A stretch of 64,000 bases of DNA from Candidatus Magasanikbacteria bacterium RIFOXYB2_FULL_38_10 (GCA_001783145.1 MFQT01000017.1:30119-94118); one strand, 5' to 3'; shown: positions 6,367 through 7,029, counted from the stretch's first letter. The notes: generated from the letters alone by a model not told the origin. Numbers and translations are program-made.

Positions 6367-6439
6367 TTAATAATAAATTTATCTTTTTTGCAGACGATGG
6401 CTTTAGTCCGCGGCGCAAAAAAGATAAATTTATTATTAA
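6367..6439. repeat. perfect 25-bp inverted repeat with 23-nt GC-rich spacer
   Basis: ttaataataaatttatcttttttgc (6367-6391) and its exact reverse complement gcaaaaaagataaatttattattaa (6415-6439). Spacer agacgatggctttagtccgcggc contains a candidate ATG (6397). Confidence 0.8.
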
Positions 6440-7029
6440 ATAAAATCATTATGCCCCTTAATCAAAAATATTTTAAAACCCTTAGTACTGTGTTTGCCGA
6501 TTGGGAAAAGTCCCGCCGCTCTGTTCAAGAAGCCTCGGCCAATGCTTTGCAAAAAGCCAAACAGGCTATTTTTTCTTTTCATCGCAATAATTGGAAAGAG
6601 GCCGAGGTTCTACTTAAAACCGCTTTGGAAAACATTAAAATCGCCGGCAAACTGCAAGAAAAAAGCATTGCCACAGATGATGAAGGAATTTTTAAATCAT
6701 CTTTAGAAGAATATGCCGAAGCTGAATTATTTCGTCAGTTTTTGTATAAAGAAACTATTGGTCCAATAAAAAATTTGGAAATTTCTCCGGAAACATATAT
6801 GGGTGGCCTAGCGGATTTGGTAGGGGAGATTCAGCGTTATGCTATGAAAATGGCCACGGAAAGAAATTTTAGCGAACTAACGCGCGCGGAAAAAGTGACC
6901 GAGGAAATTATGGGCGCAATTTTGTCTTTTAATTTTACCGGTTATCTGCGTACTAAATTTGATCAAGCCAAAGGCGCCCGTCGCAAAATAGAAGAGATCG
7001 CCTACGAAGTAAGTTTGCGTCAAAAATAA
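6397..7029 (+). CDS. translin-family protein
   Basis: The segment ETYMGGLADLVGEIQRYAM matches the translin core (human DVEDYLSGVLILASELSRL). The C-terminal KIEEIAYEVSLRQK matches human KVEEVVYDLSIRG. Size about 200 aa and all-helical. Start uncertain: TTG 6388, ATG 6397 and ATG 6451 are all possible. Confidence 0.55.
   Translation: MALVRGAKKINLLLNKIIMPLNQKYFKTLSTVFADWEKSRRSVQEASANALQKAKQAIFSFHRNNWKEAEVLLKTALENIKIAGKLQEKSIATDDEGIFKSSLEEYAEAELFRQFLYKETIGPIKNLEISPETYMGGLADLVGEIQRYAMKMATERNFSELTRAEKVTEEIMGAILSFNFTGYLRTKFDQAKGARRKIEEIAYEVSLRQK

Follow-up and report, generated by a model that had tools for sequence, protein, structure and literature searches.

A predicted TRAX-like member of the translin family ahead of murE in Candidatus Magasanikbacteria and other Patescibacteria

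Translin and TRAX, the components of C3PO, have been studied as a eukaryotic nuclease of RNA interference (RNAi), tRNA and microRNA (miRNA), with archaeal homologues serving as structural models. Here we analyze a stretch of 64,000 nucleotides (nt) from Candidatus Magasanikbacteria bacterium RIFOXYB2_FULL_38_10 (GCA_001783145.1, MFQT01000017.1:30119-94118), referred to below as the window, and describe a translin-family gene on its + strand (6451..7029; 192 amino acids (aa) plus stop) that was delimited by its open reading frame (ORF), Pfam, homologue N-termini, an AlphaFold2 model and Foldseek. Judged from its sequence, the encoded protein is TRAX-like and not translin-like, and it is presumably catalytic, because an acidic tetrad and three basic residues (K37, R129 and R167) align with residues of C3PO enzymes and are invariant among its homologues. 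A large part of the Patescibacteria carries such a single-subunit TRAX-type gene, with intact catalytic residues and at a fixed position of the core genome.

In the catalytic centre of TRAX and C3PO, four acidic residues hold two divalent cations, and their mutation weakens or abolishes cleavage; the tetrad consists of Glu123/Glu126/Asp193/Glu197 in human TRAX (HsTRAX) and of Glu82/Glu85/Asp117/Glu121 in the archaeal enzyme NeC3PO (PMC5100593). In archaea, one gene builds the octamer, of which two of the eight subunits take the TRAX-like active conformation (PMC5100593), and an archaeal TRAX homologue has been placed in an ancestral operon with SepRS (PMC5424206). Neurospora C3PO, for its part, degrades 5' pre-tRNA fragments (PMC5100593). 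As for bacteria, the part of PMC5100593 that cites Gupta et al. 2012 names Chloroflexi as the only translin-bearing ones, and our literature search returned nothing linking translin with Patescibacteria or the Candidate Phyla Radiation (CPR).

The intact ORF ending at stop 7029 (+) has three in-frame starts, TTG 6388, ATG 6397 and ATG 6451, the second of which had been taken as its beginning in an earlier, sequence-only reading of the window. The N-termini of all 24 aligned homologues (187-206 aa) have an equivalent M-x-(L/I)-(N/D) and align at ATG 6451, and both upstream starts lie within a 26-nt inverted repeat of the leader; TTG 6388 and ATG 6397 were therefore discarded, and ATG 6451 is most likely the true start. 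The assignment of this ORF to the translin family, made in that same reading, was borne out. PF01997 (Translin) was the one significant Pfam-A family, with 48.7-49.2 bits (gathering score 25.9; E about 1e-12); in the 192-aa form the match spans residues 24-190 (49.2 bits, E=8e-13) and takes in profile positions 5-204 of 205. The family was carried as well by 98 of 98 homologues. A single-sequence search of PDB chains (E<0.01) returned translin-superfamily proteins only, with AfTRAX at 1e-8, NEQ131 at 5e-4, and the fly, human and mouse translins at 2e-3 to 9e-3. In the HMMER alignment, residues 107-190 of the query pair with residues 131-222 of human and mouse translin, and the core and C-terminal motifs that had first been quoted as resembling human translin both fall, in register, inside this segment. 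With the fold matching too, as detailed below, and no better unrelated helical family found, membership of the translin superfamily is confirmed. The family is already known, and automatic pipelines already name these proteins "translin family": the JGI label on some homologues reads "predicted translin family RNA/ssDNA-binding protein", and NCBI lists them as hypothetical. A six-frame translation of the whole 64-kb window, searched with the family hidden Markov model, yielded one matching ORF and no second translin-family gene.

To place the protein within the family we used an alignment (A1) of 25 family members sharing 35-77% identity with the window protein. The A1 profile matched PDB entries of NEQ131 (NeC3PO) at 1e-20, AfTRAX at 1e-16, human TRAX at 1e-15 and fly TRAX at 2e-15, the translins, at about 1e-9, being the weakest of the family matches, and the core motif is nearer by a wide margin to TRAX and archaeal C3PO (GFADAVGELRRY, GVADLTGELMR) than to translin. 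The AlphaFold2 model (predicted local distance difference test, pLDDT, 93.5; predicted template modelling score, pTM, 0.88) is an all-alpha fold of six helices. In Foldseek comparisons with PDB its best matches were chains of NeC3PO and AfC3PO (template modelling score, TM, 0.81-0.88, the top ones reaching 0.84-0.88; root-mean-square deviation 2.0-2.8 Å), followed by human TRAX and then by translins, and the 50 best matches listed were all translin, TRAX or C3PO chains. The proposed likeness to translin thus held for the family but not for the subtype, as TRAX and C3PO are nearer both by sequence and by fold and the catalytic tetrad is kept.

By HMMER alignment, E87, E90, D122 and E126 correspond to Glu82, Glu85, Asp117 and Glu121 of NeC3PO. 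The first two metal-binding Glu belong to the motif LEEYAEA (codons E87-Y-A-E90, 6709..6720, +; residue roles from PMC5100593), which aligns with LQEYVEA of NeC3PO and of human TRAX and with MQELVEA of AfTRAX. The Asp and the third Glu of the tetrad lie in the motif GGLADLVGEIQRY (codons D122-L-V-G-E126, 6814..6828, +), aligned with GIGDIAGEILR of NeC3PO, GFADAVGELRR of AfTRAX and GVADLTGELMR of human TRAX; the 3zc0 chain of AfC3PO, a D114 mutant, reads GFAAAVGE at the Asp equivalent to D122. Conservation of the catalytic Glu/Asp residues, a check already suggested in the sequence-only reading, was complete, with all four being invariant in the 25 sequences of A1. K37, R129 (codon 6835-6837, +) and R167 are likewise invariant there and align with the substrate contacts Lys34, Arg124 and Arg163 of NeC3PO.

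These residues also bear on whether the protein could be a non-catalytic, translin-like protein that would bind single-stranded DNA or RNA and not cleave it. Eukaryotic translin belongs to the same Pfam family and has the same C-terminal helix motif (YE/DLSLR), and the C-terminal half of the window protein aligns with translins, all of which such a protein would explain. However, in the alignment of the sequence-only reading human translin has a Leu in place of the D122 Asp (GVLILASELSRL versus GGLADLVGEIQRY), whereas the window protein retains the whole tetrad; the TRAX/C3PO metal ligands are present 4/4 and invariant family-wide, and four acidic residues kept so strictly would be difficult to account for in a protein that does not cleave. 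As translin is also the weaker match by sequence and by fold, with TRAX and archaeal C3PO nearer on both counts, we consider a purely binding function improbable.

A different identity, that of a haloacid dehalogenase (HAD)-superfamily hydrolase, is implied by NCBIfam PRK14562 and by some GenBank product names. The PRK14562.1-x models, titled "haloacid dehalogenase superfamily protein", match at 1e-7 to 1e-17, and a Chloroflexota homologue carries the name "haloacid dehalogenase". These matches nevertheless stay far under the cut-offs (63.9 bits at best versus 228), the archaeal proteins under PRK14562 are Pfam Translin, with the crystallised AfTRAX among them, and the predicted fold is an all-alpha six-helix bundle as in C3PO, not the Rossmann-like fold of HAD proteins. 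Contradicted by the predicted fold, the HAD identity was rejected as having practically no chance of being right, and the name is an annotation artefact. The models NCBIfam PRK14562.1-1 to -6 are archaeal translin/TRAX-like models whose HAD name has spread to GenBank products, for example to that of the Chloroflexota protein P0166 (P numbers denote proteins and L numbers loci throughout).

The TRAX-like protein of the window and archaeal C3PO (NEQ131/NeC3PO of Nanoarchaeum equitans, PDB 5jr9/5jrc; AfTRAX/AfC3PO of Archaeoglobus fulgidus, PDB 3zc0/3zc1) have in common their encoding by one gene of about 190-200 aa, the six-helix fold, the E/E/D/E tetrad, the Lys/Arg substrate contacts and the lack of a separate translin partner in the neighbourhood, and by analogy they probably share their mode of action. 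Archaeal and Patescibacteria proteins score 35-77 bits against each other's profiles, and they differ in genomic context, which is SepRS for the former and a division and cell wall (dcw)/tRNA cluster for the latter. Eukaryotic TRAX, the catalytic subunit of heteromeric C3PO, has the same motifs (LQEYVEA, GVADLTGELMR) and the same fold (TM 0.83 to 3pja_J), but differs in its length of about 290 aa with insertions, in being unstable alone and requiring translin in a 6:2 hetero-octamer, and in its roles, which are tied to RNAi and miRNA, neither of which bacteria possess. The window protein thus belongs to a known family, in a bacterial branch that had not been described before; its fold is known and its chemistry probably so, and it does not represent a new kind of system.

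The genomic position of the gene was compared across related loci. Among the 77 GTDB loci with enough downstream sequence, murE was found downstream of the translin-family gene on the same strand in 69, and the gap between the two was at most 150 nt in 37 and at most 1.2 kb in 63 of these 69. Upstream, a gene for tRNA-Lys(UUU) was found in approximately 47 of the 60 related loci scanned, usually in divergent orientation and in about 24 of them 100-500 nt off; in the remaining loci the gap between tRNA-Lys and the translin-family gene consists of 2-4 kb of differing genes, such as a GC-rich ORF (X, 4677-6155) in the window, an M28 peptidase plus X in L001, and an OPT transporter in L009. Relatives at 67-71% identity share the order mraY, ftsW, murG, tRNA-Lys, X, translin, GT2, murE, bPH, divIC and ppiC, continued past ppiC by tRNA-Gly, tRNA-Thr, ftsE, ftsX and tRNA-Gln. 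At 36-46% identity (other Magasanikbacteria and Uhrbacteria), X and the GT2 gene are mostly gone and the translin-family gene still precedes murE; in one lineage (L005) it is placed after yceG/mltG and bacA instead. Because differing genes occupy the tRNA-Lys/translin gap while the translin-murE order stays, the variable slot stops at the promoter of the translin-family gene, which stands on the conserved side.

According to the sequence-only reading, the gene, directly downstream of the foreign cassette (ORF X), might be part of the accessory region or might itself be horizontally acquired. Recent acquisition of the gene and the cassette as one island would account for why the former directly follows a gene of 69% GC and has, not far off, a tRNA gene whose 3' end is partly duplicated. 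On the other hand, the composition of the translin-family gene is native (GC 0.396 and GC at third codon positions (GC3) 0.35, the values of murG, murE and typA), whereas that of X is GC 0.688 and GC3 0.95; a terminator and the gene's own predicted promoter stand between the two; the translin-murE arrangement is shared by dozens of genomes without the cassette; and the Patescibacteria are monophyletic in the gene tree, which follows the division into Magasanikbacteria and Uhrbacteria groups. Searches of phage and plasmid records (tblastn), of PHROGs and, for defence systems, of PADLOC gave no match to it. From its native composition, its own promoter past the terminator and its synteny in cassette-free relatives, we conclude that the gene is not part of an accessory region but a core, vertically inherited gene and not cassette cargo, and that a recent joint island is very improbable. 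The cassette itself is not confined to this genome, as orthologues of X hold the same slot in its closest relatives.

The supposed rarity of the family in bacteria was supported outside the Patescibacteria but not inside this group. A scan of GTDB with one genome per species gave at least 433 confirmed relatives, the best 80 of which have Patescibacteria-type titles or context, and the named homologues belong to Magasanikbacteria, Uhrbacteria, Falkowbacteria, Buchananbacteria, "Parcubacteria" and "Patescibacteria group" metagenome-assembled genomes (MAGs). Searching a representative library of 1.84 billion proteins with the profile gave 395 clusters at E<=1e-30, rising to 2744 at E<=1e-3. These findings extend the range known for the translin family, and small, simple proteins become available for biochemistry. 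Several MAGs titled "uncultured Gammaproteobacteria bacterium" (L013, L016, L018, L019, L022-L026 and others) show the Magasanikbacteria-type order translin-murE-divIC-ppiC-ftsEX; since they share this gene order, their titles appear to be placeholder taxonomy.

Deep relationships were analyzed in neighbour-joining (NJ) trees built on BLOSUM-normalised distances, in which the canonical eukaryotic members were represented by a single fragment of human TRAX; such trees suffice to separate clades, but neither to root the family nor to tell which way a transfer went. The 16 Patescibacteria sequences were monophyletic in 100/100 bootstraps, apart from Archaeoglobales, Methanofervidicoccus, Micrarchaeia and NEQ131. 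When eukaryotic proteins were included, the Patescibacteria were recovered in 95/100 bootstraps, a eukaryotic group in 88/100, and both together versus the rest in 95/100. Set apart from this joint clade are the archaeal-type sequences, Chloroflexota and NEQ131, so that the window protein falls outside the archaeal clade, and the nearest relatives of the Patescibacteria proteins are unusual eukaryotic proteins, not archaeal ones. The Chloroflexota translins, which are likewise bacterial, single-gene members of the superfamily, stand elsewhere: P0166 groups with the archaeal-type sequences and not with the Patescibacteria clade, for which reason the two bacterial groups probably had separate origins, that of Chloroflexota probably being an archaeal-type acquisition.

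Approximately one third of the 150 best matches in the representative library have lengths of 345-691 aa and match the profile in two or three stretches, and those that are named are eukaryotic (Chattonella subsalsa, Coscinodiscus wailesii, Didymoeca costata, Cymbomonas tetramitiformis). A single-domain protein of 235 aa (P0325) was found in the oomycete Hyaloperonospora brassicae. Against the Patescibacteria profile, the C-terminal domains of the eukaryotic proteins score 132-149 bits and the oomycete protein 166 bits, compared with 52-79 bits for the eukaryotic N-terminal domains, 35-64 bits for archaeal-type proteins, 77 bits for NEQ131 and 61 bits for human TRAX. In the reciprocal comparison, the oomycete protein had a median of 89 bits against Patescibacteria proteins and of 32 bits against archaeal-type ones. 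The two-domain and oomycete proteins reach only 25-45 bits with the solved human, fly and fungal proteins, and by sequence are not canonical translin or TRAX. As nearest relatives outside the Patescibacteria they retain the catalytic motifs, with EEYAEA and GGLxDxTGE kept in the C-terminal domains, but they differ in being usually tandem-duplicated, with low-complexity linkers and a degenerate N-terminal copy that, by eye, has lost most of the tetrad. We found no description of these eukaryotic translin-like proteins in the literature searched. Examples (P0213, P0216, P0224, P0236, P0245, P0250, P0325) come from raphidophyte, diatom, oomycete, choanoflagellate and prasinophyte sources, that is, from several supergroups.

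In these trees the Patescibacteria clade is sister to the eukaryotic clade and distant from archaeal C3PO, which makes an ancient transfer plausible. Of the earlier suggestion of horizontal acquisition, therefore, a recent entry into the present genome can be set aside, whereas an ancient inter-domain transfer probably lies at the deep origin of the gene. The question of gene exchange between ultra-small bacteria and eukaryotes is thereby raised. A more far-reaching proposal is that the Patescibacteria and eukaryotic proteins form a third, undescribed branch of the superfamily, set apart from archaeal C3PO as well as canonical translin and TRAX, that arose by ancient gene transfer between Patescibacteria and eukaryotes, and that in the Patescibacteria the enzyme, fixed in a tRNA-Lys/murE/ftsEX cluster, has a dedicated role in processing tRNA fragments or the operon mRNA; we regard this as possible but doubtful.

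Regarding function, we consider it reasonably probable that the window protein is a single-subunit TRAX-type nuclease, the bacterial counterpart of the archaeal homo-octameric C3PO, encoded by a core gene at the head of an operon and clearing short RNA fragments. As in NeC3PO and AfC3PO, its six-helix subunits would form a hollow, closed oligomer whose cavity would admit short single-stranded RNA and, less well, DNA, to be cut endonucleolytically by a two-metal-ion (Mg2+/Mn2+) mechanism, with the metals held by E87, E90, D122 and E126 and the substrate contacted by K37, R129 and R167. The modelled subunit fold is compatible with a closed hollow octamer or hexamer, and the presence of one translin-family ORF in 64 kb fits the archaeal pattern of an octamer built from a single gene. 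The cellular job would, speculatively, be the clearance of short RNA fragments such as by-products of tRNA processing, an activity that would be in keeping with a reduced genome. We infer oligomeric state, nuclease activity, substrate and cellular role by analogy with the described C3PO enzymes. Like the Neurospora and SepRS findings cited above, the genes for tRNA in the vicinity, with tRNA-Lys flanking and tRNA-Gly, -Thr and -Gln in the downstream cluster, suggest a link of the gene to tRNA only weakly.

Several points weigh against this assignment. The position of NeC3PO Arg164 is occupied by Thr168 in the window protein, the next residue, K169, being invariant, and the archaeal enzymes that have been characterised are only 20-23% identical to it. 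Because the clade stands apart from the archaeal one, substrate preference may differ. A frozen accident in compact genomes, and not function, may explain why the gene is linked to tRNA genes and murE.

The same linkage could be read in another way, namely that the nuclease is tied to envelope synthesis or division, processing or regulating the transcript of the dcw cluster or sensing the state of the envelope. Its fixed place before murE would then reflect this role: the adjacency persists even where the proteins share as little as 36-44% identity, and the gap is often no wider than 40 nt; in the lineage lacking it the gene follows yceG/mltG and bacA, also envelope genes; and several genomes have a structured leader before the gene, its sequence differing among them. 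However, no function of translin or TRAX in envelope biology is known, the leader repeats show no sequence conservation, and Patescibacteria genomes are compact, with long mixed operons, which makes neighbourhood weak evidence. An envelope role thus seems rather unlikely, and an RNA-clearing nuclease of the C3PO type is the reading we retain.

Downstream of the translin-family gene, a GT2 glycosyltransferase (7043..7699, +; Pfam PF00535, 8e-28) begins 13 nt past the translin stop and occupies the same position in L001-L004 and L012-L016. The next gene is a murE-like Mur ligase (7699..9003, +; assigned by Mur_ligase_M/_C matches on orthologues). As GT2 starts so close to the stop and the start of murE overlaps the stop of GT2, the translin-family gene probably heads an operon, with GT2 as its second gene, that runs into murE, divIC, ppiC and ftsEX.

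On its 5' side, a terminator-like hairpin, CCGGCAATC ... GATTGCCGG followed by T8 (6286..6340, +; read from the sequence), closes the upstream GC-rich gene and parts it from the translin-family gene; an equivalent hairpin with a T-run was found in L004, L012, L003 and L013. A consensus scan predicted a sigma-70-like promoter for the translin operon (6326..6354, +; TTGCCG, 17 nt, TAAAAT, with a TG extension), and a TG(C/T)TAAAAT element occurs at the same place after the upstream terminator in L004 and L012. The 5' leader contains a perfect inverted repeat whose 26-nt arms are separated by 23 nt (6366..6440, arms 6366-6391 and 6415-6440, +; repeat search). The repeat holds the upstream in-frame TTG and ATG, is unique within the window, and gives an RNA fold of -32.4 kcal/mol (z = -6.3). 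The sequence of the repeat is not kept in relatives, with L003, L013 and L016 having different repeats at that position. This leader repeat could be a regulatory or processing site.

ORF X (492 aa, +), the presumed foreign cassette, has a promoter-like site at 4457-4485 and GGAGG before its ATG. Against a window GC of 0.366 it is the sole GC island in the 64 kb. Its orthologues in L001, L003, L004, L012 and L013 are divergent, with 24-45% identity and GC3 of 0.73-0.99, compared with 53-88% identity for the flanking genes. No Pfam, NCBIfam, PHROGs or PADLOC family was found for X, and database searches gave two homologues only. It shares 100% identity with a GenBank protein of Candidatus Magasanikbacteria bacterium RIFOXYB2_FULL_38. 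Helices make up most of the protein, its tail is rich in Lys and Gly, and the AlphaFold2 model is poor (pLDDT 61, pTM 0.26). X is a syntenic, fast-evolving gene that keeps an extreme GC3 in AT-rich genomes.

Other Magasanikbacteria loci (L021 2389-3183, L039 4382-4747, L065 4769-5131, L024 9995-11608, L053 11484-12239, L029 4794-5657 and others) also have unrelated ORFs whose GC3 is 0.73-0.92 although their surroundings are AT-rich, some of them encoding small Cys-rich proteins of one family (…HRG(R/Q)FRCNQTGE…); GC-rich islands seem to recur in the Magasanikbacteria lineage. In a large Magasanikbacteria subgroup, the gap before the translin-family gene is filled instead by an ORF of approximately 880-898 aa, located at about 3.3-6.0 kb on the same strand as that gene and ending a few nt before it (L020, L021, L025, L026, L028, L035, L036, L043, L044, L047, L057, L062, L075 and L083), whose N-terminus looks by eye like a P-type ATPase.

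The tRNA-Lys(UUU) gene of the window, the mostly divergent upstream neighbour of the translin-family gene, lies at 4302..4377 on the - strand (ARAGORN and Rfam). With Rfam at gathering thresholds, the only matches in the window were five tRNAs; neither the leader nor the cassette matched an RNA family. A partial copy of the 3' end of tRNA-Lys(UUU) and of its flank lies 67 nt away (4225-4255 versus 4292-4322; 31 nt, 87% identity), on the murG side of the tRNA, and resembles an att-like scar left by an earlier integration or excision. Further along, at 14885-15724 (-), the window contains a full-length match to PF05822 (UMPH-1, pyrimidine 5'-nucleotidase; 6e-59). As the UMPH-1 family is chiefly eukaryotic, this may be a further eukaryote-like gene of the genome.

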